DNA of 45,683 nt from Gemmatimonadales bacterium. GTDB taxonomy: Bacteria; Gemmatimonadota; Gemmatimonadetes; Gemmatimonadales; GWC2-71-9. Positions 26,787 through 42,659 of the stretch are shown here, one piece after another. Below the pieces are notes generated by a model. That model searched no databases and was not told the origin of the DNA. It was given only the letters and a program-made list of their open reading frames with translations. The stretch covers positions 1-45,683 of the forward strand of contig JBFJHJ010000027.1 of NCBI GenBank assembly GCA_041613315.1, written 5' to 3'. Both the position numbers and the translations under genes were made by a program. Positions within the stretch are counted from its first letter, which is position 1. Every line of letters begins with the position of its first letter.

Positions 26787-27070
26787 CGGCACAGGAGCTT
26801 GACGGGAGGTCATCCGAGGGTTTCAATCTACACCCATGTTCCGATCCGCAACGGGTCAGGCGGGCGGCAGCGGAACTCGGGACCCGTATGCGGGGTTCCA
26901 CTTGCACATTACCGGAGATCCACGATCACGGTGATGACCTCGACAGCCGGATGCACAGTGGCCGGAATCGAACCCCGTCGCCCGACGCGGCGCCGGGGCG
27001 TTCCCTTTCGTTGGGCCACGGCGCCTGGACGGCCCGTCGACGGGTCACACCCACATGGAGGATGGCTCTC

Positions 27071-30067
27071 ATGAAGGCCAGAATTGGTGTGCTGCTCGCG
27101 CTGTTCGTGTGCTTCGGCATGGGGATGGCGAACGGGCAAACGCGCATCGTCACTGGTTCGGTGACGGATGCCTTGACCGGCGAGCCCGTGGTCGGTGCGG
27201 AAGTGTCGGTGGCCGGCCAGGCGATCCGCGCGATCGTGCAGGATAACGGCGCCTTTTCGATCGGGGTGCCGGCCGGGCCGGTGACGGTTCGCATCCGGCG
27301 CATCGGCTATCGGGCATTCGAGGCGGTCGTTCCAGCGAACCAGAACACGCTGAACGTCACGCTCGCGGCCGATGTGCTCCAGCTCGACGAGGTCGTCGTG
27401 ACGGGCACGGCCACCCAGATCGCCCGGCAGAACCTCGCCAACGCCGTGGCGACGGTGAGTGGTGAGGCGGTGACCCAGGTGAGCTCCGAGAGCGTCGAAC
27501 ACGCGCTCCAGGGCAAGGTGGTCGGGGCGGACATTCAGGTGAACTCGTACGCGCCGGGCGGCGGCGCGCAGGTGCGGTTACGTGGTGTGACCTCCATCAA
27601 TGCGACGGCCTCGCCGCTCTACGTCATTGACGGGGTGATCGTGAGCGACGCGGCGATCCCCTCGAACCAAAACGCCGTCACGGCGTCAACCGGCGGCAAC
27701 AACCCGGCCCTGACACAAGACGGTCAGGTGAACCGGATCGCGGACCTCAACCCCAACGACATCGAGAGTGTCGAGGTGCTGAAGGGAGCGTCGGCGTCGG
27801 CGATCTACGGGTCCAAAGCGTCGAACGGCGTGATCATCATCACCACGAAGCGGGGGCGGGCGGGACGGCCACAGGTCAACGTCAGCCAGCGCTTCGGGAT
27901 CTTCGACCTCGCCAACAAGCTCGGCTCTCGGACGTTCGAGGACGCGGCCGAGCTCGACGCACAGTTCGGCGCCGGCACGGCCGCGGCGGTGGGCTTCACA
28001 CCCGGCGTCGCGTTTGACCTCGAGCAGGAGCTCGCTGGCCGGAACGATCTCTCGACGGAGACGGCCTTCAGCGTCACGGGTGGGGCGAACGACACTCGCT
28101 ACTTCCTGTCGGGGCTGTGGAAGAACGACGCAGGCGTGATGGAGAACACCGGGTTCGCCAAGCACTCCATTCGCGCCAACGTGGACCAGGCGTTCGGCGA
28201 CCGGCTGAACGCCAGTGTCAGCACGAACTTCACGCACACGGACGCGCGCCGCGGCCTCCAGAACAACGACAACGCGGGCGTCAGCCCCTACATGGTGTTC
28301 CCGTTCACGGCGAACGTGGTAGACCTCAAACGCCGGGCGGACGGGACGTTCCCGGACAATCCGTTCGAGCGCAGCAACCCGCTGCAGACGCTCGGGCTGA
28401 TGAAGAATGACGAAAACGTGTGGCGGTTCATCGGCTCGGGTCGGCTCGACCTGGCCGCGGTCCAGACCCAGCAGCAGCAGCTCAACCTGATCGGGGTGGC
28501 CGGGATCGACTTCTTCCAGCAGCAGAACGAGCTGTTCTTCCCACCCGAGCTCCAGTTCGAGGACGACGACGGGTTTCCTGGAACGTCGTTGCTCACGAAC
28601 AGCGACAACGTGAATATCACGCTCAATGGAAGCGCGGTGTACACCTATTCTCCCGGGGGCGGCGGAACGCGGTTCACGACGTCCACCGGGGTGCAGTACG
28701 AAACCCGGGACCTGAACATCGCCCGGGTCACGAGCCGGGGGCTCACGGCCGGGCAACCGAACATCGACGCGGGCACGAACGTGACCGTGAACGAGATCCG
28801 GCAGCGGGTGGAGGACTTCGGGTTCTACGTGCAGGAAGAAGTGCTGATGCTCAACGATCGGCTGCTGCTGACCGCGGGATTCCGCGCCGACCAGTCGAGT
28901 GCCAATGCGGACGACACTAAGCTCTACTTCTTCCCCAAGCTCGCGGGGTCGTACCGTTTCCCCGACCTCGGCGGTGTCGTCAACGACCTCAAGATCCGGG
29001 TCGCGTACGGCGAGTCCGGGAACCAGCCCCTGTTCGGGCAGAAGTTCACACCGCTTGACGCCACCAACAACATCGAGGGGATCGCCGGGATCACGATCCC
29101 CGGGAACGTACTGGCGGCCAACGTCGGCTCCAAGGAGTTGAAGCCGGAGCGGCAGCGGGAGATCGAGGGTGGCGTGGACGCGACGCTCTTCAACGACCGC
29201 GCGACGCTCGAGTTCACCGTCTATCAGAAGACCATCACCGACCTCTTGCTGACGCGCGCGCTGGCGCCGTCGTCGGGGTTCAGTCAGGAGATCTTCAACG
29301 GCGGCAAGCTCCGGACGCGTGGGGTCGAGCTAGGGGTAGGTCTGATCCCCGTGCAGTCGCCCGGGTTCAGCTGGGTGTTCCGCTCCAACTTCTTCCTCAA
29401 CCGGAGCAACGTCACCGAGTTGCCCGTGCCGTCGTTCCTGCCGGCCTCGTCGGGCTTCGGGGTCGGGCTCGGCACGATCCGTATCGAGCAGGGAAAGTCG
29501 GCGACCCAGTTCGTCGGGAACATCCGGATCGACCCGGTGTCGGGCGCCCCGGTGGACTCGACGATCGGCGACGTGAATCCCGACTTCAAAGTGGCGTTCA
29601 CGAACGACATCAATTGGAAGGCGCTCCGGCTGTACTTCCACTGGGACTGGCAGCAAGGCGGCACCATCGTGAATCTGACCCGGCTGCTCTACGATGCGGG
29701 CGGCCTGACCAAGGACTTCGATGTCCCGGCGCCGGGGGAGACCCAGGGCGCCGGCCTCAAGCGGTTGTTGGAGGGTCCTCTGGTGGGTGGGGACACGCGG
29801 ATCTACGCGGAGGACGCCACCTTCCTCAAGCTGCGGGAGATCACGCTCTCGTATGCGTTGCCGCAGTCTGCCGTTCGCGGCATTTGGGGCGGCATCCGGA
29901 ACGCGCGGTTGAGCGTGAGCGCGCGCAACCTGCTCACGTTCACCGACTACTCGGGGATGGACCCGGAAGTGAGCAACTTCGGCAACCAGCCCACGGGCCG
30001 TAACATCGACGTGGCGCCGTTCCCCCGGACCCGCAGCTTCTGGTTCGGCATCGATCTGGGATTCTAG
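27071..30067 (+). CDS. susC: SusC/RagA family TonB-linked outer membrane transporter
   Basis: Signal peptide; carboxypeptidase-regulatory-like domain; TonB box LDEVVVTG; plug with PLYVIDG; SusC signature DLNPNDIESVEVLKGASASAIYGSKASNGVIIITTKRG; C-terminal Phe; GGAGG RBS. The symbol is a family-level assignment. Confidence 0.95.
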   Translation: MKARIGVLLALFVCFGMGMANGQTRIVTGSVTDALTGEPVVGAEVSVAGQAIRAIVQDNGAFSIGVPAGPVTVRIRRIGYRAFEAVVPANQNTLNVTLAADVLQLDEVVVTGTATQIARQNLANAVATVSGEAVTQVSSESVEHALQGKVVGADIQVNSYAPGGGAQVRLRGVTSINATASPLYVIDGVIVSDAAIPSNQNAVTASTGGNNPALTQDGQVNRIADLNPNDIESVEVLKGASASAIYGSKASNGVIIITTKRGRAGRPQVNVSQRFGIFDLANKLGSRTFEDAAELDAQFGAGTAAAVGFTPGVAFDLEQELAGRNDLSTETAFSVTGGANDTRYFLSGLWKNDAGVMENTGFAKHSIRANVDQAFGDRLNASVSTNFTHTDARRGLQNNDNAGVSPYMVFPFTANVVDLKRRADGTFPDNPFERSNPLQTLGLMKNDENVWRFIGSGRLDLAAVQTQQQQLNLIGVAGIDFFQQQNELFFPPELQFEDDDGFPGTSLLTNSDNVNITLNGSAVYTYSPGGGGTRFTTSTGVQYETRDLNIARVTSRGLTAGQPNIDAGTNVTVNEIRQRVEDFGFYVQEEVLMLNDRLLLTAGFRADQSSANADDTKLYFFPKLAGSYRFPDLGGVVNDLKIRVAYGESGNQPLFGQKFTPLDATNNIEGIAGITIPGNVLAANVGSKELKPERQREIEGGVDATLFNDRATLEFTVYQKTITDLLLTRALAPSSGFSQEIFNGGKLRTRGVELGVGLIPVQSPGFSWVFRSNFFLNRSNVTELPVPSFLPASSGFGVGLGTIRIEQGKSATQFVGNIRIDPVSGAPVDSTIGDVNPDFKVAFTNDINWKALRLYFHWDWQQGGTIVNLTRLLYDAGGLTKDFDVPAPGETQGAGLKRLLEGPLVGGDTRIYAEDATFLKLREITLSYALPQSAVRGIWGGIRNARLSVSARNLLTFTDYSGMDPEVSNFGNQPTGRNIDVAPFPRTRSFWFGIDLGF

Positions 30068-30096
30068 CCATGCGCACACCACTGAGGACACCGACC

Positions 30097-31518
30097 ATGC
30101 TACGCTCCACGAAACTGTCCCTCGCGGCCCCGCTGGTTGTGGCGCTCGCGCTGGGTGGCTGTGAATCGTTGACGGTGCCGGACTTCAACAACCCGGGCAT
30201 CGAGACCCTGACCGAGAACCCGACGCGCTCGGTGGTCATCGCCGCGGCGCACGGGCTGCTGCTGGATGCCCGGTCGGGGATCTCCGGGCGCGCCGGCTAC
30301 GTCTCCGCGCTCGGCATCCTCGGGCGGGAGTCGTACAACTTCGATGCGTCGGACCCGCGGTTCGTGACCGAGATGCTGATTGGGCCACTGGATGGCGGCA
30401 CGCCGGCCTTCGGCGGCGCGCAGTGGATTCCGCGGTATACCGGCTACCGCGACGCCCAGAACGTCCTGAACGGTCTCGATGCCCTCTCGGAGGGCGAGAT
30501 GTCCACCGCCGAGAAGGCGGGGATTCGAGGCTTCGCCAGGACGATGCAGGCGCTCGACCTGCTCCTCGTGATCAATACGCGAGACGACAACGGCGCGGTG
30601 ATCGCGGTGACGGATGACCCGACCGGCGAGCCCGCACCCATCGTGACCAAGGCGGAAGTCTTCACCAAGATCGCGCAGCTCCTCGACGATGCCTCGTCGG
30701 ATCTTCAGAGCGCCGGAAGCGCCTTCGCGTCGGACATCCGCTTCCCGAGCGGCTTCACCGGCTTCAAGACGCCCGCAACGTTCCGCCAGTTCAACCGCGC
30801 GCTGCGGTCACGGGTCGCGGTGTACATGGGCGCCACCGACCCGGCGCAATACACCGCGGCGCTCAACACCTTCCTCCCGGCGTCGTTCATCAGCACGACG
30901 GCATCGCTGAGCACCGGTGTGTATTACAATTTCGGGACCGGGGCCGGCGAGACCGGGAATGGGCTGTTCGAACCGTCCAACCTCGTCCTCTTGGCCCACC
31001 CGTCCATCCGCGCTGACGCACAGCTCCAGGCGGGCGGGGCGCGCGACCAGCGCTACCTCAACAAGGTCAAGACGGTCGCCTCGGTGGGCGATCAGGCGAG
31101 CCAGGGCATTGCGAGCGACTTGGCGTACACGATCTACGGCAGTACCAACGCGCCGATCTCGATCATCAAGAACGAGGAACTGATCCTCCTGCGGGCCGAG
31201 GCGAATCTGGGAGCCGGGAACGTGGATGCCGCGCTCACCGACATCAACTTCATCCGGCAGAACGCGGGTGGGTTGACAGCCATCCCCCTGCTCACGTGGC
31301 AAGGATGGAGCGCCGCTCAGCGCCTCGACGAGCTGCTGTACAACAAGCGCTACTCGCTGGCGTACGAGGGCGGCCACCGTTGGATCGATATGCGGCGCTA
31401 TGGCCGGCTGAGCCAGCTTCCGCTCGACAAGCCGAACTTCACGGTGCAGGCCAAGTACCCCTTCCCGGCTCGGGAATGTGATGCCCGCACGCAGAAGCCC
31501 GCGCAAGGGTGTGGATGA
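30097..31518 (+). CDS. susD: RagB/SusD family nutrient-binding outer membrane lipoprotein
   Basis: Lipobox LGGC; EELILLRAEA; INFIR; EGGHRWIDMRRYG; directly downstream of SusC. Start is 30097 (GAGG RBS) or 30070. The symbol is a family-level assignment. Confidence 0.93.
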   Translation: MLRSTKLSLAAPLVVALALGGCESLTVPDFNNPGIETLTENPTRSVVIAAAHGLLLDARSGISGRAGYVSALGILGRESYNFDASDPRFVTEMLIGPLDGGTPAFGGAQWIPRYTGYRDAQNVLNGLDALSEGEMSTAEKAGIRGFARTMQALDLLLVINTRDDNGAVIAVTDDPTGEPAPIVTKAEVFTKIAQLLDDASSDLQSAGSAFASDIRFPSGFTGFKTPATFRQFNRALRSRVAVYMGATDPAQYTAALNTFLPASFISTTASLSTGVYYNFGTGAGETGNGLFEPSNLVLLAHPSIRADAQLQAGGARDQRYLNKVKTVASVGDQASQGIASDLAYTIYGSTNAPISIIKNEELILLRAEANLGAGNVDAALTDINFIRQNAGGLTAIPLLTWQGWSAAQRLDELLYNKRYSLAYEGGHRWIDMRRYGRLSQLPLDKPNFTVQAKYPFPARECDARTQKPAQGCG

Positions 31519-31559
31519 CCGCGCGCGACCGACCGTGTGCGGCATGACGTGCTCTGACC

Positions 31560-31592
31560 CGCCCCCGTCGCGCGACACCCGCGGCGGGGGCG
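31560..31592 (+). terminator. GC-rich stem-loop after susD
   Basis: CGCCCCCGTCGCG / CGCGGCGGGGGCG 13-bp stem (one G:U pair) with a 7-nt loop. There is no U-tract, so it may be an mRNA-stabilising or processing hairpin. Confidence 0.5.
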
Positions 31593-31627
31593 CGGTCGTC
31601 TGGGGCAGCGGTGTCAGGAGGTGACCG

Positions 31628-32365
31628 ATGCGAGCGACCTGGTGCGTCTTCATCGCCGCGCTCATGGGCGCTTCGCCCGCGGACGCGCAAGTTCGCACGC
31701 TCGCGGGCCGCGTGAGCGACGCGGTGACCGGTGAGCCGCTCGGCGCCGGCGAGGTCCTGGTCAAGGAGACCGGGACGCGCGATCGGTTGCGGCCGGACGG
31801 GGTGTTCGTGGTGCGCGCGCCGCGCGAGGCGGTGACGCTCGTGGTGCGGAGCGTCGGCTACCGGTCGCGGAGCGTGCCGGTGGCCGTGCATGAGGACGTG
31901 ATGTTCGTGCAACTGGTCCCAGACCCCCTAAAGCTCGACGCCGCGAACGTGGAGCATCGCTCCGCTCCCGGGGTGTCCGGCGACGCGGTCAGCGCGGTCC
32001 CGGCCTCCAGCGTCAAGGAAGTCCTTCAGGGTCGGGTGGCGGGCGCCGACGTCCAGCGGAACTCCGGCGCGCCGGGCGGCGACCTGCAGGTGCGTCTTCG
32101 GGGGATCAGCTCGATCCTCGGCTCGACGACGCCGCTCTACGTCGTGGACGGCGTGGTGGTCAGCGATGCGAGCGTGGGCTCCGGGGTGTCCGCCGTGACG
32201 GGCGGCGCCGATCCCCTCCCCGGTCGGCTGGCCGACCTCAACCTTCTCGACATCGCACAGATCGACGTGCTCAAGGGGGTGGCGGCCACGACCACGTATG
32301 GGCCCAGAGCCGCCAACGGCGTGATCGTGATTACGACGAAGCGCGGGCGCGGGTCGCGGCCTTAA
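31628..32365 (+). CDS. Stand-alone SusC-type N-terminal + plug-domain protein with no beta-barrel
   Basis: AGGAGG RBS; signal peptide; N-terminal domain and plug collinear with the upstream SusC; ends at YGPRAANGVIVITTKRGRGSRP*. Confidence 0.85.
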   Translation: MRATWCVFIAALMGASPADAQVRTLAGRVSDAVTGEPLGAGEVLVKETGTRDRLRPDGVFVVRAPREAVTLVVRSVGYRSRSVPVAVHEDVMFVQLVPDPLKLDAANVEHRSAPGVSGDAVSAVPASSVKEVLQGRVAGADVQRNSGAPGGDLQVRLRGISSILGSTTPLYVVDGVVVSDASVGSGVSAVTGGADPLPGRLADLNLLDIAQIDVLKGVAATTTYGPRAANGVIVITTKRGRGSRP

Positions 32366-33300
32366 GACCGCACCCACACGAAATAGCTCGACTGGCTGAG
32401 CGCGTTCTCGATCACCCATTGGATCACGAGGCCCGGCTCCACCTGCAACCGTTCAGTGGTGACGCGTCCCGCCCCGCCGATCAAGTCCGCGAGGAGCTGG
32501 ATCGTGGCACCCGGACCGAGCAGGGCCTCGGGCACCTCGAACGTCTCGGTGTTCATCGTGGTCACGGTCCCCAGCCGAAAGCGGTTGCCGCCCCGGAGGA
32601 TGTAGATCCGGACGTCGCTCCAGTTGTGATTGGAGACCTCGACGGTGGTCCCGACCCACTGGGCGTCCACCGTGACGAGCCCCACGCTCTGCAGGCCCAT
32701 GAGTATCAGCAGCGCCGGCAAATCTGTAACGGCGGCAGCAGCGATCCCGAGCGCCACCGCCGGCTCCGCGTCGAGGGTGAGCAGGCTGTCCGGCCCCACG
32801 ACGCCTGGAATGGCGGGGCCCGGCGCCACCATCGCCGACCCCACGCGGGCCTCGGCCCCTTGTCGCCGGGCGAGTCGGCCGTAGGTCTGGCCAAGGGTGT
32901 CCATCGCGGGCACGGACAGCTCCAGCGTCCGATCGGCCGGAGGGCGTCCGGCGCCGATCGACGCGCCCGGTGCGACGAAGATCGAGTCGGCGGCCAGCGC
33001 GACGAGCGCGGCCGCTCCCCACGCCTGGGTCCCGACGAGCGCATAGACCGGGACGCCCGACGCTTCGACCGCGTCGGCGATGAGCCGTGCCATGTCAAAG
33101 CTGCCGCCGCCCGAGCTGAGCTCGAGGATTACCGCCGAAGCCCCCCCCGCGTCGGCGGCGTCCAGGGTGCGCGTGACCAGCCGCTGCGCCTGGAGGCCGA
33201 CGGCGCCGGTCAAGGCGACGCGGTACACGAGAACGTCCTGGGCGGGCGCCGCGCGGGGGGCGAGCACCGCCAGGGCGACGAGCAGCGGAATCGACCGCAT
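32362..33300 (-). CDS. Secreted NfeD N-terminal (ClpP/crotonase-fold)-like protein fused to a C-terminal beta domain; catalytic residues absent
   Basis: Signal peptide ending APA|Q; NfeD-like VILELSSGGG, VPVYALV, ALVALAADSIFVAPGASIGA, AMV and LLTLDAEPA; no TM or OB domain; C-terminal VEVSNHNWSDVRIY..RFRLGTV domain. Confidence 0.72.
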   Translation of the reverse strand: MRSIPLLVALAVLAPRAAPAQDVLVYRVALTGAVGLQAQRLVTRTLDAADAGGASAVILELSSGGGSFDMARLIADAVEASGVPVYALVGTQAWGAAALVALAADSIFVAPGASIGAGRPPADRTLELSVPAMDTLGQTYGRLARRQGAEARVGSAMVAPGPAIPGVVGPDSLLTLDAEPAVALGIAAAAVTDLPALLILMGLQSVGLVTVDAQWVGTTVEVSNHNWSDVRIYILRGGNRFRLGTVTTMNTETFEVPEALLGPGATIQLLADLIGGAGRVTTERLQVEPGLVIQWVIENALSQSSYFVWVRS

Positions 33301-33332
33301 CCGGCACCTTCTTCGGAACGGGGCCGTGTTCT

Positions 33333-35138
33333 CTACCCGCCAGCGCGTGGCCGGTTTCGTACACCGCCCTTCGGGGACAGTACACGCGCGAGCCGGGCGA
33401 GGAACGCGCGCCAGGGGCGGGTCGCCTGCCGCAGGGCGCCCGCGTACGCCGTCGCCGTGGGGAAACGGTCGTCGGGGCTCCGCGCCGCTCCCCGCTGCAA
33501 CACGCGCCACAGCCGCTCCGACACGTCGCGGCGCACCTCCGCGACGTTCGGGAGCTCCCCCGCGGTGTGCTGGGCCAATATCGCCTCCACCGTCCGGCCG
33601 GTAAACGGGGCCCGGCCGGTGAGCGCGTAGTACGCCGTGAGTGTGAGCGAGTACAGGTCGCTGCGGCGGTCCACCGGCTCGCCCAACAGCTGCTCGGGGG
33701 CCGCGAACTCGGGCGTCCCCGAACGCGAGGAGGCACCGCCGTGGCGGTCCACGCCCTTCAGCGCCAGCGCCAACCCGAAGTCGGCGATCCGCACCCGGCC
33801 GGTCGCATGTTCGATCAACAGATTCTCGGGCTTGAGGTCACGGTGCACCAGGCCACGCTCGTGGGCATGGCCGAGGGCGTCCAACGCCTCGCCGAGCACG
33901 TGGACCACCCGATCGACGGGCAGCCGTCCCTCCGTCTCGACGACTCTCGAGAGGCTGCGGCCACGCACGTACTCCATGGTGTACCAGATGAGCCCGGCCC
34001 GCCCGCCGATGTCGTAGATGTTGACGATGTTGGGGTGCTCCAGCTGGGCGACGAGCCGGGCCTCCCGACGGAACCGCTCCACCACGGCGGGATCCGCCGT
34101 GAGATACGGATGCAGCACCTTGAGCGCGACCTCGCGCTCGAGGGCGAGGTCGCGCACGCGATACACCCGTCCGAACCCGCCCGTGCCCAACTCGTCGAGC
34201 AACTCGTAGTCGTCTCCCAGCGCGCGTCGCAAGCGCTTCTCCCACGCGCGCGGGTCCTCCGTGGTGGTCGGGAGGTCGGCGGTCACCGAGAGCCGCGGAT
34301 CGTATTCGCCCAAGTCCGATAACAGATCGGCCCCCATCTCGGCGGCGGTGAGGTAGCGGCTGTGCGGCTCGGGTCGGAGCGCCCGCATCACCACCCGCTG
34401 GAGAGCCTGCGGGCACGCCGGCCGGAGCGTGCGGGGGTCCACCACTTGCCGGGGGTCCTCGGCGGGCGGCTGACCCGTCGCCGCGAAGTAGAGCACGGCC
34501 GCCACCCCGTACACATCGCTCGACGGATCGCCGGGGCTGCCGTCGCGAAGCTCCGGGGCGAGGTACGGTACGCCGGCCGGATCCACGAGCGCGCGTGTGG
34601 CGACGTCGAGCAACACGCTCGCGTAGCGCAGGTCGGTCAGGTAGGTCCGGCCGGCGAGCTCGAGCATCACCGTCCGCGGCACGACGCGGCGTACCACGAT
34701 CCGCTGCGCATGAGCATACTCGAGCACGCTGGTGAGATCGCGGGCCAATTTGAGTACGTCGGGGATGAGCCGCGGCCCCCGCGCGACGGCCTCGGTCAGA
34801 CTCTCGCCCTCGATCCAGCGGGTGACGCGGAACGCCCAGTCCTCCCGGTATCCCGCCCAGTACACCGACCGAATCACCGGGTGATCCAGCGCGGCCAGCA
34901 GCTCGGTCTCGCGCTCGAACCACGTTCGCCCCGGGGCCCCCGGCGCCATATGGACCCGCAGCGCGGCCTTGCGCTTCAGCACCACGTCACGGCAGACGAA
35001 GAGCGCGCGCTCGTCGGAGGCGGCCACGAGCTGGAGGATCTCCAGCTCGCTCCGGAAGTGCGCACCGGCCTGGTCCATGAGCTGGAGGTGATCGACGCCG
35101 GGAGCGATGCGCGTGTCGGCGGGTCTGGGGGCGATCAT
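33333..35138 (-). CDS. Tandem pseudokinase + active Hanks-type Ser/Thr protein kinase, soluble
   Basis: The C-terminal domain has GTGGFG, VALK, HRDLKPEN, DFG, GTPEFAAPE and SDLYSL. The N-terminal kinase fold keeps LDHPVI, EGESL, YLAPE and SDVYG but lacks the catalytic motifs. The start is ATG 35138 or 35078. Confidence 0.92.
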   Translation of the reverse strand: MIAPRPADTRIAPGVDHLQLMDQAGAHFRSELEILQLVAASDERALFVCRDVVLKRKAALRVHMAPGAPGRTWFERETELLAALDHPVIRSVYWAGYREDWAFRVTRWIEGESLTEAVARGPRLIPDVLKLARDLTSVLEYAHAQRIVVRRVVPRTVMLELAGRTYLTDLRYASVLLDVATRALVDPAGVPYLAPELRDGSPGDPSSDVYGVAAVLYFAATGQPPAEDPRQVVDPRTLRPACPQALQRVVMRALRPEPHSRYLTAAEMGADLLSDLGEYDPRLSVTADLPTTTEDPRAWEKRLRRALGDDYELLDELGTGGFGRVYRVRDLALEREVALKVLHPYLTADPAVVERFRREARLVAQLEHPNIVNIYDIGGRAGLIWYTMEYVRGRSLSRVVETEGRLPVDRVVHVLGEALDALGHAHERGLVHRDLKPENLLIEHATGRVRIADFGLALALKGVDRHGGASSRSGTPEFAAPEQLLGEPVDRRSDLYSLTLTAYYALTGRAPFTGRTVEAILAQHTAGELPNVAEVRRDVSERLWRVLQRGAARSPDDRFPTATAYAGALRQATRPWRAFLARLARVLSPKGGVRNRPRAGG

Positions 35139-35210
35139 CCACAATAATAACGTCGGGCCGACGGATGAGGGCGAGCGCCCCGGGCGTTCGGCCGGGATCT
35201 CGCGACACCG

Positions 35211-35239
35211 TTGTACGGGCCGGTGGGAGGGCATAGCTT
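35211..35239 (+). promoter_or_regulatory. sigma70-type promoter for the FHA-protease gene
   Basis: TTGTAC (35211-35216), a 17-nt spacer and TAGCTT (35234-35239); the ATG is 8 nt downstream. Confidence 0.6.
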
Positions 35240-35247
35240 CCCCCACC

Positions 35248-36906
35248 ATGCCCTACCTGCGACTGCGCAATCAGACGAGCGGCGAGCCGCACGAGTTCGA
35301 ACGTGGTGAGGTGCGGATGGGGCGTGAGCCCGGGCTGGAGCTGGTGGTGAGCGGCACCACCGGCGACGTGGTGTCGGGCACGCATGCCCGGCTCGTGCAC
35401 CGGGACGGCACGTGGTGGCTCGAAGACCTGGGGAGCCGCAACGGCACCTATCTCGACGAGCGCCGCGTCACGCCGGCCGCGCCGCGCCGCGTTGCCCCGG
35501 GCGCGGTCATCGGCCTGGGCCGCCGCGGGCCGCGGTTCGTCGTGGACGCCGTGTTGCCCCGCACGATCGAGGACACGACTCCTGAGGACCTGCCCAGCCC
35601 GGCGGCGCGCGACACGGCCGATTCCGTGGCGGGCGCCGCCGCCGGACGGACCCCTGAGTTCCGCGCCACGGTGGCCGGGCCCCGGGATGTCCCACCCGCG
35701 CCGGTCGCCGATGTCCGCCGCCGGAGCTTCGGCGGCAAGGGCAAGACGGTCTTCTTTCAAGAGATGTTCGCGGAGACGCACCGCCGGACGGCGCGGCGTG
35801 TCCGGTGGATCGTCTGGTCGTTCGTGGTCCTCCTCGCGGGCGCCACGGGAACCCTGTACTGGTTCGGCGAGCGCCGGGTCCAGGAGGCTATCGCCCGCCA
35901 GGATCAAGCGACCGATTCGATCCGCCGTGCCTCGCGCATCGAGTACGAGCGGCTTCGGGCCGAACTCGAGCGTGCGCGGTCCGGCTCCGCCCCGGCGGTG
36001 GTGGTGGAGAGCCTCCGCACCGCGTTGGAGGAGGCCGGACGGCGCACGACGGCCCTCGAGTCGGCGCTCGGTCGGGCGCAAGCGTCGCTCGAGGAGCAGC
36101 TGGCCGCGGGCGACGAGTTGCGCCGGCAGGCGGAGGCCGAGCTGGCACGGTTGCGCACCGATCTGGCGCGCGCTGCCGAGCGGCAACCCAGCGGCGCGGT
36201 GTTGGACAGCCTGCGCGCCGCGGTCGCCGCGGCGGAAGCACGGGCGGGCGCGCTCGAGAGTCAGCTCCGGGCCGTCAAGGGGGTGGACTTGGCAGCGGTG
36301 GCACAGGCCAACCAGGCGGCGGTGGGGCTCGTCGCGGCGTACGTGGGTCCCGATGTCTTCGACGCCTCCGGGTTCGCGATTACGCCGAGCGGGTACTTCG
36401 TGAGCAATCGCCACGTGCTCGTGCGCGACGGCCGGCGGCCGGACTCGGTGTTCGTTACGATGGCGGACCAGCAGGTGATGCGCCGTGCCGATATCGCCGC
36501 CGTGGCGGCGGCGGGCGGTCCCGATCTGGCGATTCTCAAGATCCGAAGCCACAGCGGCGTGTACGTGCACCGCGTCGACTGGTCGGGCACGCGAGTGCGA
36601 CAGGGAGAGCCGGCGGCACTCATCGGCTTCCCCGCCGGGTTCGCGGCGGCTCTCGACCAGAGCCGCACCGTGCGCACCTCGATGAGCGCCGGGATCTTCA
36701 GCAAAGTGACCCCCGAGACGATCCAGTTCGACGGCTTCACGGTGAGCGGATCGAGCGGGAGCCCCATCTTCAATGCGGACGGCGAGGTCGTGGCGATCCA
36801 CCGGGCGGGGTTGCGGGACGCGGTGGGGATGGGCTTCGCCGAGCCGGCGTCCCAGCTCGTGCCGCTTCTGCCGCCGGCCGCGCGCGCCGAGCTGAACCTT
36901 CGCTGA
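35248..36906 (+). CDS. FHA domain - TM - coiled coil - trypsin-like serine protease
   Basis: FHA motifs MGRE, VSGTHA and LEDLGSRNGT; TM WIVWSFVVLLAGATGTLYWF; heptad-rich Ala/Glu/Arg segment; protease triad SNRHV, PDLAIL and GSSGSP. Confidence 0.9.
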   Translation: MPYLRLRNQTSGEPHEFERGEVRMGREPGLELVVSGTTGDVVSGTHARLVHRDGTWWLEDLGSRNGTYLDERRVTPAAPRRVAPGAVIGLGRRGPRFVVDAVLPRTIEDTTPEDLPSPAARDTADSVAGAAAGRTPEFRATVAGPRDVPPAPVADVRRRSFGGKGKTVFFQEMFAETHRRTARRVRWIVWSFVVLLAGATGTLYWFGERRVQEAIARQDQATDSIRRASRIEYERLRAELERARSGSAPAVVVESLRTALEEAGRRTTALESALGRAQASLEEQLAAGDELRRQAEAELARLRTDLARAAERQPSGAVLDSLRAAVAAAEARAGALESQLRAVKGVDLAAVAQANQAAVGLVAAYVGPDVFDASGFAITPSGYFVSNRHVLVRDGRRPDSVFVTMADQQVMRRADIAAVAAAGGPDLAILKIRSHSGVYVHRVDWSGTRVRQGEPAALIGFPAGFAAALDQSRTVRTSMSAGIFSKVTPETIQFDGFTVSGSSGSPIFNADGEVVAIHRAGLRDAVGMGFAEPASQLVPLLPPAARAELNLR

Positions 36907-36913
36907 CGCGGCG

Positions 36914-39559
36914 GTGGCGAGCGTCGCGGTGACGTCCCCGATCACGGTCGTGATCGTGCCCCACACCCACTGGGACCGGGAGTGGTACGAGCCGGAGGCG
37001 CGCTTTCGCCAGCGCCTGGTGGCGGCGTTGGACGACGCGCTCGATCGCCTCGCGTCCGGGGAGCTGGGCATGTTCCTGCTCGACGGACAGACGGTGCTCC
37101 TGCGGGATTACCTGAGCGTCCGGCCCGAGCGGGCGGCCGACGTGCGGCGACTGGTCCGAGCCGGGCGGCTGCTCGTCGGACCATGGTACGTGCTGGCCGA
37201 CGAGCTGCTGCCGGCGGACGAGACGCTGGTGCGCAACCTCCTCGTGGGCCGCGCGGACGGACGCCGCCACGGGGGCTGGCTGGCGGTCGGATACTCACCT
37301 GACGCCTTCGGCCATCCGGCCGCCCTCCCCACGATTCTGCGTGGCTTCGGCATCGCGCACGCGATCGTGTGGCGCGGCTGCACCGGCGAGCAGGGCGCCG
37401 ATCTCTTCCGCTGGCGGTCCCCGGACGGCTCGTCGGTCCTCCTGCACCACCTCCCGCCGCCCGGCTACGAGCTGGGCGCGAACCTGCCGCGGGAACGCGC
37501 GGCGCTGCAGCGGCGCTGGAGCGAGATCCGCGGTGTGCTGGAGCCCCGGGCCGCGCACGGGGTGCTGCTGCTCCTGAACGGGGCCGATCATCACGCACCG
37601 CAGCAGCACTTGCCCGAGATCGTCCGGCGCCTGGGTGGACTTGCGCCGCGACACCGCTTCCGCGTCGGCTCGCCCGCGGACTACTTCGCCGCGCTCCCCC
37701 GCGCACCCGCCATTCCGATCGTGGATGGCGAGCTGCGCCGCGCCGACGGTCACGCGTGGGCGCTTCAGGGGACGCTTGCCACCCGCACCGGACTCAAGCA
37801 GAGGATCGCCGAAGCGGAGCGCCTGTTGCTGCGGTGGGCGGAGCCGCAAGCCGCGTTGGCGTGGGTCGCCGGGGGCGCTGATCGGCGGGCGCTGCTCGAC
37901 GCGGCCTGGCGCGCACACCTCGAGAACTGTTTCCACGACACGATCTGCGGCACCACGAGCGATGAGGTCGCGTGGACCGCCGGTCTCCGCACGCGGTCGG
38001 TGGCCGTGCAGGCCCGCGGCGTACTGGACGACGCGCTCCACGAGCGGTTGGGCCAGGATCGCGGCCGCGCGCGGCACGCGCGGTCCCGCTGGTCTCCCAC
38101 GCTCGTTGTGGTCAACCCTTCGCCGTTCGCGCGGGGTGGCGTGCTGGAGGCGACGGTCACCTTTCCCCGTCGGCAGGTGGTCGTTGGGCGGGCCCCCACG
38201 GCGGCCGCGCGGCGGTCCGCGCCACCGCCCGGTGCCGTCGCGCTCGTGGATGGCCGCGGCGCGTCGCTTCCGCTGCAGGTGCTGGATCGACAGGCGGCGT
38301 GGGAGCGGTTGGACAGTCCGCGGGACTATCCCGCGCAGGATGAGGTGTGGGCGTACCGGGTGGCGCTGTACGCGCGCGACGTCCCGGCGCTGGGGACGCG
38401 CGCGTACCGCGCGCGCGACCGTGGTGGTGCCGCACGCCTCGCCGAGCGCGTGGGCGCGCGTGGCCGATCCATCACGGCGCCCTGGTGTCGAGTGACCGGA
38501 GGGGACCGCACCGGGTTCTCGCTGCACGAGCGGGAAACGAAACGACGCTGGCACGCGCTGGGCCACCTCGTGAGCGAGCACGATCTCGGGGACACCTACA
38601 CGTTCCAGCCCGCGCGCGGCGGTCGGCCGCGCCGGGCGGTGTGGGGACGCGCCCGAACCGTGTGGCGTGGTCCGCTGGTGGCGGCCCTGGCCCGCGAGTT
38701 CCGTATCGGCGACGCCGTGCGCGGCACCGTGTACGCGCGACTCGACGCGGGTTCCCGCCTCGTCCGGGTTGTGGTGGAGGGCGAGAATCGCGCGGGGCAG
38801 CACCGGCTGCGGCTGGCGCTTCCGCTCGGGGACGCCGGCCGGCGCGGGCGTACGCTCGCCGACATGGCGTATGGTTCGGTCACGCGGCAGCGCGAGGCGC
38901 TGGATGTCCCGCGGTTCTCGCGCGAGTGGCCCGTGGCCACCGCGCCAATGCACCGCTGGGTCAGCGTGCCGGACGGGCTCACCCTGTTCGCGCGCGGACT
39001 CTACGAGTACGAGCTCGCCGCGGACGGGACGCTCTGGATCACCTTGCTGCGCTCCGTTGCGGAGCTTTCCAGGGGCGACCTCGCCGCACGGCCGGGACAC
39101 GCCGGATGGCCCGTGGCGACACCGAACGCGTTGGAGTTCGGGAGGTTCCGTACGGAGCTCGCGTTCGCCACGGAAACCGTCGCCGACGACCGGGGGCCCG
39201 CCGCCTGGGATCGGGTGGAGCGGCTGGCCGAAGAGTTTCACGCCCCCTTGGGCGGCCGGATGTTCCGGTATGGCCTCGCGTGTCCGGAGCGGCTTCGGGG
39301 CCCCGAGCTGTCCGGGGCTGGACTCGCGCTCAAGGCCGTCAAGCCGTCGGCAGATGGTCGGGCGCTGGTGTTGCGGTGCGTGAACGTGACGGCCACGTCC
39401 GTCGTAGGCGCGTGGCACCTGCCGTTCCGTGCACGGCGCGCCGAGCGGGCGCGGCTGGACGAGCGCGCGACCGGCCGGCTCCCTGTCCGTTCGGGCGGCC
39501 GTGTGGTGCGATTCGACGCCGGTCCACGAGAGGTGGTGACCGTGCGGGTGGAGCCCTGA
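36914..39559 (+). CDS. Glycoside hydrolase family 38 (alpha-mannosidase / mannosylglycerate hydrolase-like)
   Basis: HTHWDREW, LDGQT, VGPWYVLADE, PDAFGH (nucleophile), NGADH, FHDTICGT and ITLLRSV motifs; no signal peptide. Confidence 0.9.
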   Translation: MASVAVTSPITVVIVPHTHWDREWYEPEARFRQRLVAALDDALDRLASGELGMFLLDGQTVLLRDYLSVRPERAADVRRLVRAGRLLVGPWYVLADELLPADETLVRNLLVGRADGRRHGGWLAVGYSPDAFGHPAALPTILRGFGIAHAIVWRGCTGEQGADLFRWRSPDGSSVLLHHLPPPGYELGANLPRERAALQRRWSEIRGVLEPRAAHGVLLLLNGADHHAPQQHLPEIVRRLGGLAPRHRFRVGSPADYFAALPRAPAIPIVDGELRRADGHAWALQGTLATRTGLKQRIAEAERLLLRWAEPQAALAWVAGGADRRALLDAAWRAHLENCFHDTICGTTSDEVAWTAGLRTRSVAVQARGVLDDALHERLGQDRGRARHARSRWSPTLVVVNPSPFARGGVLEATVTFPRRQVVVGRAPTAAARRSAPPPGAVALVDGRGASLPLQVLDRQAAWERLDSPRDYPAQDEVWAYRVALYARDVPALGTRAYRARDRGGAARLAERVGARGRSITAPWCRVTGGDRTGFSLHERETKRRWHALGHLVSEHDLGDTYTFQPARGGRPRRAVWGRARTVWRGPLVAALAREFRIGDAVRGTVYARLDAGSRLVRVVVEGENRAGQHRLRLALPLGDAGRRGRTLADMAYGSVTRQREALDVPRFSREWPVATAPMHRWVSVPDGLTLFARGLYEYELAADGTLWITLLRSVAELSRGDLAARPGHAGWPVATPNALEFGRFRTELAFATETVADDRGPAAWDRVERLAEEFHAPLGGRMFRYGLACPERLRGPELSGAGLALKAVKPSADGRALVLRCVNVTATSVVGAWHLPFRARRAERARLDERATGRLPVRSGGRVVRFDAGPREVVTVRVEP

Positions 39560-41829: not shown

Positions 41830-42537
41830 TTAGTGATCGCGGCGGTTGAGGAACCGCTCCAGCCGACCCTCCGCCGACGCGGCGTGCGGCCCGACATAGT
41901 CCCGCCGCACGTCGTGCAGCGCGTCCCAGAGCACGTCGGCCTGCTCAGCGGCGTCGAGGAAGACGGCCGACACGCCGGGGGCGCGCCCGCACATCGCTCG
42001 GGCCGCGAGCGCGAGGGCGTGGGACGCGAAAGTGATGTAGGCCCGCACCATCGAGGCTCCGCCGCGGCGCGCCACGGCCTCAGGAAAACAGCCCGCCCAC
42101 CAGAGCGCGAGCGCACCGATATCCGCCGCGCGTTCGGCCTGCGCCACAGTGCCGCTAGGCAACGCGCTGATCGCGCGCCACCAGTCGGCCAGCCCGCACC
42201 GGCCGCGCGCGAGCCGCGCCGACTCCCGCGCCGGCGCGAACGCCACCGGCAGCGTGGCCGTGTAGTCGGCAAGCGCGATGTCCTGAAGCCCTCGCTGTCT
42301 CAGGGCCGCGCGGACCGGGACGTACCACAGGAGGGTGAGCGGGAGCGGAGCGGGCGCCCCGCCCTTGCCGCGCACGGCCTCCAGTGCGGCGCGCGAATCG
42401 AGCAGGCCATCCACATCGCCGGCCTCCAACGCCGCCGCAGCCGGGCGCGCCTCGTCCGGGTCCGACCGGCCGATCTCCGCCACCAGCCGGGCGAGATCGT
42501 CGCGGCGCAGCAGTCGGTGGATCATCGGTGCGATCAT
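41830..42537 (-). CDS. Hypothetical helical protein (about 235 aa)
   Basis: AAGGAG RBS before ATG 42537; protein-like composition; upstream sigma54-type promoter. Confidence 0.75.
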   Translation of the reverse strand: MIAPMIHRLLRRDDLARLVAEIGRSDPDEARPAAAALEAGDVDGLLDSRAALEAVRGKGGAPAPLPLTLLWYVPVRAALRQRGLQDIALADYTATLPVAFAPARESARLARGRCGLADWWRAISALPSGTVAQAERAADIGALALWWAGCFPEAVARRGGASMVRAYITFASHALALAARAMCGRAPGVSAVFLDAAEQADVLWDALHDVRRDYVGPHAASAEGRLERFLNRRDH

Positions 42538-42659
42538 CGCCACTCCTTGCGTGCTCCCGTTCACGAGTGGTGCGTCCCGCTACGAGCTTGAACCCGGGCC
42601 CGCGCCGGGGCTGTGGGAGTCGTCACACGGTGACACACCCCACCCTGCCCGCGAGAGGA

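Follow-up and report, generated by a model that had tools for sequence, protein, structure and literature searches.

A predicted periplasmic protease with a cytoplasmic phosphothreonine reader in Gemmatimonadales, and the tandem pseudokinase-kinase encoded beside it

Introduction

The locus described here raises the question of whether a soluble kinase and a membrane-anchored protease, encoded back to back, form a single signalling circuit. The window, which is the whole stretch of DNA analysed (45,683 nucleotides; positions 1 to 45,683 of contig JBFJHJ010000027.1, assembly GCA_041613315.1, of a Gemmatimonadales bacterium), carries a gene for a soluble tandem pseudokinase-kinase (33333..35138, minus strand; 601 aa from a likely leaderless ATG at 35138). 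Divergent from it lies a gene for a protein of 552 aa with an FHA domain, a transmembrane helix, a coiled coil and an HtrA-like protease domain (35248..36906, plus strand), which we call type A. A sequence-only reading of the window had proposed a dedicated one-to-one circuit, in which the kinase writes phosphothreonine, the FHA domain reads it, and the signal passes through the membrane to the protease. We favour another reading, with a probability of about 0.45: type A would be a phosphothreonine-controlled switch for clustering or positioning the protease, and its writer would likely be a threonine-directed kinase of a wider network, not only the adjacent tandem kinase.

Comparisons were made in 40 relatives and in 140 genomes drawn evenly from the phylum. 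The family of the window is denoted f1, its sister family f3, and a further family, used as the root of the kinase tree, f2.

Architecture of the type A protease

In the type A protein of the window, Pfam matched an FHA domain at residues 22-91 and Trypsin_2 at residues 373-517 with H389, D426 and S503, and the hydrophobic segment at residues 188-206 has a Kyte-Doolittle (KD) hydropathy of 1.66, so the N-terminal FHA domain, single transmembrane segment and intact trypsin triad of the sequence-only reading are all present. The structure model consists of the FHA domain (residues 1-101, 35248..35550, plus strand; G25-R26, S43, H46, S63 and N65-G66), a disordered linker (residues 107-171), one unbroken helix across the membrane segment (35809..35865, plus strand), two further stalk helices and the protease domain (36289..36903, plus strand). 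The stalk as a whole (residues 208-346, 35869..36285, plus strand) is helical, with three helices and a heptad pattern.

Across 30 type A proteins, the His-Asp-Ser triad is invariant (30/30), the FHA residues G-R/S/H/N-G are near-invariant, and the hydrophobic segment reaches a KD value of at least 1.6 in 29. Lys and Arg are more abundant on the FHA side in 23 and equal in four; in the window protein, that side is rich in Arg. Because of this positive-inside bias and the hydropathy, a single-pass topology is predicted with the FHA domain in the cytoplasm and the protease in the periplasm. The inside-out architecture proposed earlier, with the two domains on opposite sides of the membrane, therefore stands, as a prediction, as a conserved trait of the family. 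The rigid relay through the transmembrane segment and coiled coil is not supported, since about 60 disordered residues, in a region with a predicted local distance difference test score (pLDDT) below 50, part the FHA domain from the membrane helix.

A second FHA domain is found in 26/30 type A proteins; the copies in the window, G144, G022 and G014 have one, and the window protease has lost its second. A juxtamembrane S/T-T motif was seen in type A and in its paralog, type B, described below. As this motif lies at the start of the helix and may be a cap, we did not score it as a phosphosite.

A fold search with the protease domain gave DegQ, HtrA1, DegP and DegS-deltaPDZ as the top matches. 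No PDZ domain was matched in the window protein by Pfam or in the model, and the chain ends 35 residues past the Trypsin_2 match. Scores fell below the curated HtrA cut-offs of NCBIfam (best 52 bits against 450 for NF041521; DegS 19 against 423). Three copies of residues 226-552 were predicted to form a trimer with a score of 0.83, against 0.00 for the best control; solved homo-pairs attained the mark used in 20 of 30 cases, and single chains in 1 of 23. The runs had no less than 46% of their contacts in common, and the partner pLDDT was at least 69. As HtrA trimers have already been solved, this pass may reflect likeness to them.

In a motif census of the 150 best matches from a sequence search against representatives, 133 had one or two FHA motifs, the catalytic motif and a hydrophobic segment. 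Databases automatically annotate proteins that combine FHA and trypsin domains in Gemmatimonadota and other phyla.

A paralog in a kinase-phosphatase operon

The genome that holds the window encodes 17 kinase-domain open reading frames (ORFs) in 2.6 Mb, and it also encodes the type B paralog (C29:13998-15431). This is the last gene of a co-directional set that comprises FHA-FHA, a membrane Hanks kinase, a membrane PP2C and the FHA-transmembrane-protease (L024, G000:C29:10672-15431), located between an amidase gene and anmK-murQ. Types A and B form separate clades in a tree.

A protease match was obtained in 28 of 29 type B loci fetched (L086 was dropped). Among loci with enough flank to be counted, PP2C was directly upstream in 26/27, the kinase was present in 23/24, and all four genes were found in 20/23; anmK or an amidase gene was nearby in 22/28. 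Type B was found in 40/64 f1 genomes and in 17 of the 19 f1 genomes with type A, although these kin are not independent. The type B operon is a better-conserved circuit than the tandem kinase with type A, and through it the protease family is tied to Hanks-kinase/PP2C signalling. A further arrangement, unlike both types, was seen at L085 (G037:C68), where an FHA-transmembrane-protease lies among three kinase genes, one of which is fused to PP2C.

Candidate writers and an invariant linker threonine

FHA domains bind phosphothreonine, not phosphoserine. According to a portion of Chen et al. (PMC3898841), a beta-branched amino acid at DFG+1 of a kinase dictates threonine, and leucine goes with serine or with no preference. 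This residue was leucine in 51/51 tandem kinases of f1 and f3, and isoleucine or valine in six f2 copies. It was isoleucine in 22/22 type B operon kinases; of the 15 kinases scored in the host genome, 13 have isoleucine or valine. All 22 operon kinases also have about two threonines in the activation loop, compared with any threonine in 7/22 tandem kinases adjacent to type A and none in that of the window, where the loop ends in GGASSRS-GTP. The tandem kinase is thus probably serine-leaning or unselective, and the operon kinase probably threonine-directed. The leucine and the threonine-poor, serine-rich loop lower the odds that the tandem kinase is the writer, and it can no longer be taken as the obvious source of phosphothreonine, as it was in the sequence-only reading. 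We also considered that the FHA domain might dock on the tandem kinase; this was dropped, as no threonine is conserved in the activation loop (7/22) or the inter-domain linker (10/20).

A candidate for both phosphosite and FHA ligand lies in type A itself. Thr110 (35575..35577, plus strand; T-T-P-E) is a threonine in 28/28 aligned type A rows, with two gaps, within a linker that is otherwise unconserved and disordered. Of the type A rows scored, 24/25 carry the pattern T-x-x-[E/D/Q] at this offset, compared with 4/26 type B rows and 2/22 after the second FHA domain (FHA2); five rows missed the anchor pattern, and three partial or split rows had been set aside in advance. The threonine is also kept in G155, a genome without the tandem kinase. 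In type A proteins with two FHA domains, FHA2 is the one with the fuller SRxH motif.

Conservation of the kinase-protease pair

If the tandem kinase were the dedicated writer of type A, its pseudokinase gating the active domain in a JAK-like manner, it would phosphorylate T110 or itself, the FHA domain would read the mark, and the periplasmic protease would be switched on. This is the likeliest of the alternatives. Among the 40 relatives, the tandem kinase was found in 24/24 f1, 8/8 f3 and 6/8 f2 genomes, and a type A ortholog in 15/40. In the phylum sample, the kinase was present in 62/64 f1, 29/31 f2 (plus one by profile) and 2/2 f3 genomes; it is near-universal, single-copy and vertically inherited in Gemmatimonadales. 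Type A is present in 19/64 f1 genomes and adjoins the kinase in 17 of these. Protein and profile searches did not find the pair in the 43 genomes outside the order, none of which yielded the kinase; distant ORFs with FHA and trypsin domains were found in two genomes outside it (G106 and G151). A search for related loci gave two true orthologs among eight loci, both in metagenome-assembled genomes of Gemmatimonadota (Gemmatimonadales).

In the kinase tree (57 rows, rooted with f2), the 22 loci in which kinase and type A are adjacent comprise basal lineages and one nested clade, with seven state changes. The type A tree yields the same groups, and type A is inherited vertically. Because the adjacent loci form basal lineages of the kinase tree, adjacency looks ancestral in f1 and f3, with several losses. 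This ancestry argues for a dedicated kinase, as do the directly back-to-back arrangement at 12 of 18 basal-lineage loci, the presence of the tandem kinase somewhere in 30 of 31 other type A genomes, and the strong conservation of the pseudokinase domain.

Nevertheless, the two genes part readily. They are unlinked in 10 of the 31 other type A genomes, namely in 7/7 f3 genomes and in G022, G025 and G155. In G155, which is 100% complete, an intact type A with its linker threonine remains at the ancestral locus, where the kinase has been deleted, and the kinase is absent genome-wide. Conversely, G130, G082 and G010 keep the tandem kinase and have type A nowhere in the genome, type A has been deleted beside the second kinase copy of G013, and G003, G019 and G043 have a truncated or remnant type A with an intact kinase. 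A qor or ydjM gene intervenes in 8/22 adjacent loci, and control neighbours are equally persistent within lineages (nitrilase 15/18, ABC-2 genes 12/12, GGDEF 12/13). The pairing is therefore ancestral yet separable, and neither gene needs the other. The synteny check suggested with the sequence-only reading gave a divided answer: adjacency is ancestral in one family (22/57 kinase loci), and it has been freely broken. The one-to-one circuit itself is not supported, given that each gene is kept without the other. With the imbalance between kinase and type A genomes in f1, the DFG+1 leucine and the lack of a conserved loop or linker threonine also against it, we regard a dedicated tandem kinase as unlikely.

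Proposed mechanism

In the favoured reading, a kinase with isoleucine at DFG+1, of which the operon membrane kinase (G000:C29:11394-12956) is the prime candidate, would phosphorylate T110, and PP2C would remove the mark. Contacts between FHA domains and phosphothreonine, either between trimers or with other phosphoproteins, may draw protease trimers together or recruit them to places where the envelope is being worked on, in the manner of the tandem-FHA module of Rv1747. Periplasmic proteolysis would then be controlled by clustering or placement and not by a rigid relay through the linker, and local proteolysis of envelope substrates would rise; type B lies among amidase, anmK and murQ genes. 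The tandem kinase is a soluble kinase of the core genome, retained next to type A from a common ancestor onwards, and may play a part in this network.

Several observations weigh against this reading. The link between kinase and type A spans two lineages and many genera, with kinases 55-64% identical, while the downstream flank changed, and such lasting adjacency fits a functional link. Confident trimer contacts lie in the protease domain alone, with none in the stalk. The DFG+1 rule was derived from eukaryotic kinases, and leucine also permits no preference. As the window protein has no FHA2, its linker threonine would have to be read in trans. Finally, type B was not detected in G022 and G069, both of which have type A.

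It is also conceivable, though we think it quite unlikely, that the FHA domain and linker merely anchor the protease at a cellular site, for example through phosphoproteins of division or wall recycling, and that the protease, in the manner of DegS/HtrA without a PDZ domain, is constitutive or activated by substrate, with no signal across the membrane. The disordered residues before the membrane helix would be a poor conduit for a conformational change, the predicted trimer contacts fall entirely within the protease domain, and the wall-recycling surroundings of type B agree with such a role; on the other hand, the invariance of a linker threonine within the protein itself suggests that it switches itself through FHA-phosphothreonine contacts and is more than a simple tether. 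Equally doubtful is a more elaborate scheme, in which a JAK-like kinase with an Arg-lined dead domain would sense a cytoplasmic nucleotide or phospho-ligand and phosphorylate the linker threonine, and FHA-phosphothreonine cross-links would condense HtrA-type trimers into clusters in the membrane, switching on periplasmic proteolysis with no extracytoplasmic sensor. The defence role raised in the sequence-only reading, with the kinase sensing phage infection or another conflict and the protease killing the cell, is very improbable: the kinase domain does score against the PD-T4-6, MAD6 and PglW models, but these are generic kinase-domain matches below the cut-offs (MAD6 242 against 460, PglW 145 against 990), the kinase is a vertically inherited, single-copy gene of almost the whole order, and the neighbours examined are housekeeping transport and metabolism genes with no defence-system genes among them.

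The tandem pseudokinase-kinase

The N-terminal pseudokinase domain of the window protein (34266..35078, minus strand) has R, xRR and DLR in place of the beta3 Lys, HRD and DFG, retains the alphaC Glu, and adopts a kinase fold in the model. The C-terminal Hanks kinase domain (33396..34226, minus strand) carries intact catalytic motifs (GxGGxG, VALK, HRDLKPEN, DFG and GTPEF). The same division holds in the 51 tandem kinases of f1 and f3, with HRD and the beta3 AxK in 0/51 N-terminal domains, and HRDxKPxN in 50/51, DFG in 51/51 and AxK in 51/51 C-terminal domains. The dead domain is strongly conserved: an invariant Arg occupies both the Gly-loop and the beta3 position, accompanied by the alphaC Glu, a WIxGE hinge and DLR for DFG.

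The highest 19-residue hydropathy of the tandem kinase is just 1.07, which agrees with the earlier statement that it has no transmembrane segment. The Pfam scan found no PASTA repeats, and the PknB/Stk1 score was 370 bits against a cut-off of 450. AlphaFold2 modelled both kinase domains confidently (pLDDT 88.5); their relative packing is not fixed (predicted template modelling score 0.54), and the inter-domain linker is disordered. The active domain matches PknB (38-39% identity, TM-score 0.91). TYK2 and JAK1 were the top fold matches of the whole protein, with both domains aligned at a root-mean-square deviation of about 19-24 A, and the likeness lies in domain order alone; domain and fold searches gave no FERM or SH2 domain, and the catalytic domain is a PknB-like Ser/Thr kinase, not a tyrosine kinase.

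Some members of the family depart from this pattern. In f2 (L052-L057), the pseudokinase is more eroded (HGAV and GWEW motifs), the active domain has isoleucine or valine at DFG+1, and histidine kinase genes adjoin in several genomes. G013 has two tandem-kinase loci (G013:C65 and G013:C31; L010 and L058) on different branches of the tree, one of them with type A, which may reflect duplication or mis-binning. In one clade (L026, L027, L031 and nine further loci), a GAF-GGDEF gene sits upstream of the tandem kinase (12/13), in many cases together with a gene for a CGNR zinc finger, and the locus has no type A.

Start regions and neighbouring genes

The four gene parts listed in the sequence-only reading, namely the tandem kinase, the FHA-transmembrane-protease and the NfeD-like and GH38 neighbours, were all recovered in place by Pfam and coordinates. 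It had also placed a shared promoter in a divergent region of roughly 110-170 nt. The divergence is correct and the gap is likely 109 nt (35139-35247); the sharing is not supported. A scan of this region for -35/-10 pairs gave 0 sites, and a shared sigma-70 promoter was dropped in favour of leaderless sites with a -10 element only. A -10-like hexamer sits directly at the start of each gene, TATTAT at 35144..35149 (minus strand), 5 nt before the kinase ATG, and TAGCTT at 35234..35239 (plus strand), 8 nt before the protease ATG at 35248. Two back-to-back leaderless promoters 109 nt apart are therefore likely. The pattern TAnnnT occurs 4-9 nt before an in-frame start at 29/53 kinase loci and 18/31 type A loci, compared with 15/2025 internal ATG/GTG codons of the host genome, and the tandem kinase retains its own -10-like element even with another gene inserted upstream.

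The NfeD-like gene (32362..33300, minus strand) begins 32 nt past the tandem-kinase stop. Its product of 312 aa matches NfeD1b_N in Pfam with 73 bits (cut-off 40), fused to a small domain that is common in Gemmatimonadota; the membrane domain and C-terminal OB fold of NfeD are absent. The nucleophile position is glycine (AWGAA), compared with serine in full-length NfeD (AWSAG), so the earlier label of a dead protein is likely right. Its suggested role as a substrate, inhibitor or scaffold is a different matter. The gene adjoins the kinase at 1/51 kinase loci, that of the window alone, and a set of 140 other genomes has just two full-length orthologs (G013 and G083), each of them next to SusD/plug genes on another contig. 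The gene thus goes with the SusD/plug cassette and is outside the module. Its small C-terminal domain (32365-32664, minus strand) belongs to no Pfam family, has three stand-alone relatives in the genome, and is represented by Gemmatimonadota clusters in the ESM Atlas. On the other side, the GH38 glycoside hydrolase gene (36914..39559, plus strand; Pfam) starts 7 nt 3' of the protease gene. It is an old neighbour that remains where type A has been deleted, and it was likewise ruled out as part of the module.

Two other features of the window were noted. Positions 27062-32365 contain a SusC-SusD pair followed by a protein of 245 aa that consists only of the SusC N-terminal extension and plug, with no barrel; the same cassette is also found downstream of the tandem kinase in G070 and G144. 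An ORF of 244 aa (41830-42564, minus strand) had no Pfam or NCBIfam match.

Relation to known systems

The observation is real and apparently undescribed. Literature searches gave no description of the FHA-transmembrane-protease architecture or of the Gemmatimonadota tandem kinase, with supplementary family tables outside their scope; those of the 2025 bacterial kinase atlas could include the kinase. A portion and a term search of PMC12599244 gave no Gemmatimonadota or tandem kinase family, and in portions of PMC7159879 and bioRxiv 10.64898/2026.10.19.760177 FHA and trypsin domains are named with regard to other systems.

The cytoplasmic part of type A resembles Rv1747, in which, according to a portion of PMC8339232, PknF phosphorylates an FHA-linker-FHA region at T152 and T210, with subsequent oligomerisation and phase separation. 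The same arrangement of FHA, threonine and FHA, with the threonine invariant, is found in 26/30 type A proteins; the window protein keeps the threonine with one FHA domain. The effector differs, being a periplasmic protease on a coiled-coil stalk where Rv1747 has an ABC transporter. The kinase encoded next to it is soluble, tandem and divergent, unlike the co-transcribed membrane receptor of Rv1747; type B has a co-directional membrane kinase.

The periplasmic part is, like DegS and other HtrA (S1C) proteins, a membrane-anchored His-Asp-Ser protease of chymotrypsin fold with a predicted trimer; unlike them, it has no PDZ domain, scores below the NCBIfam cut-offs, and has gained a stalk of 120-190 residues and a cytoplasmic FHA domain. 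The motif GSSGSP also replaces the GNSGG of DegS and HtrA. Type A thus resembles an Rv1747 FHA module joined to a DegS-like protease and belongs to neither family.

As in JAK JH2-JH1 and in plant tandem kinase-pseudokinases, a single chain of the tandem kinase carries a pseudokinase on the N-terminal side of an active kinase. Its active domain is PknB-like, it has no FERM or SH2 domain, and an independent origin is likely. It has the active Hanks motifs of PknB/Stk1 PASTA receptor kinases without their transmembrane helix or PASTA repeats. The type B operon, with its writer, eraser and reader beside cell-wall genes, is comparable to the actinobacterial PknB/PknA-PstP-FhaA/B cluster and to PpkA-PppA-Fha of type VI secretion systems (T6SS). 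It differs from both in that its reader and a protease, on opposite sides of the membrane, form one protein, and the loci examined have no PASTA, RodA/PbpA or T6SS genes.

Control of HtrA proteases normally comes from the periplasm, by way of their PDZ domains. Type A has no PDZ domain and carries instead a phosphothreonine reader, predicted to lie in the cytoplasm, together with a conserved threonine of its own. This suggests a way for Ser/Thr signalling in the cytoplasm to position or gather a protease across the membrane, and it offers a direct, testable handle on the role of the many Hanks kinases of Gemmatimonadales.

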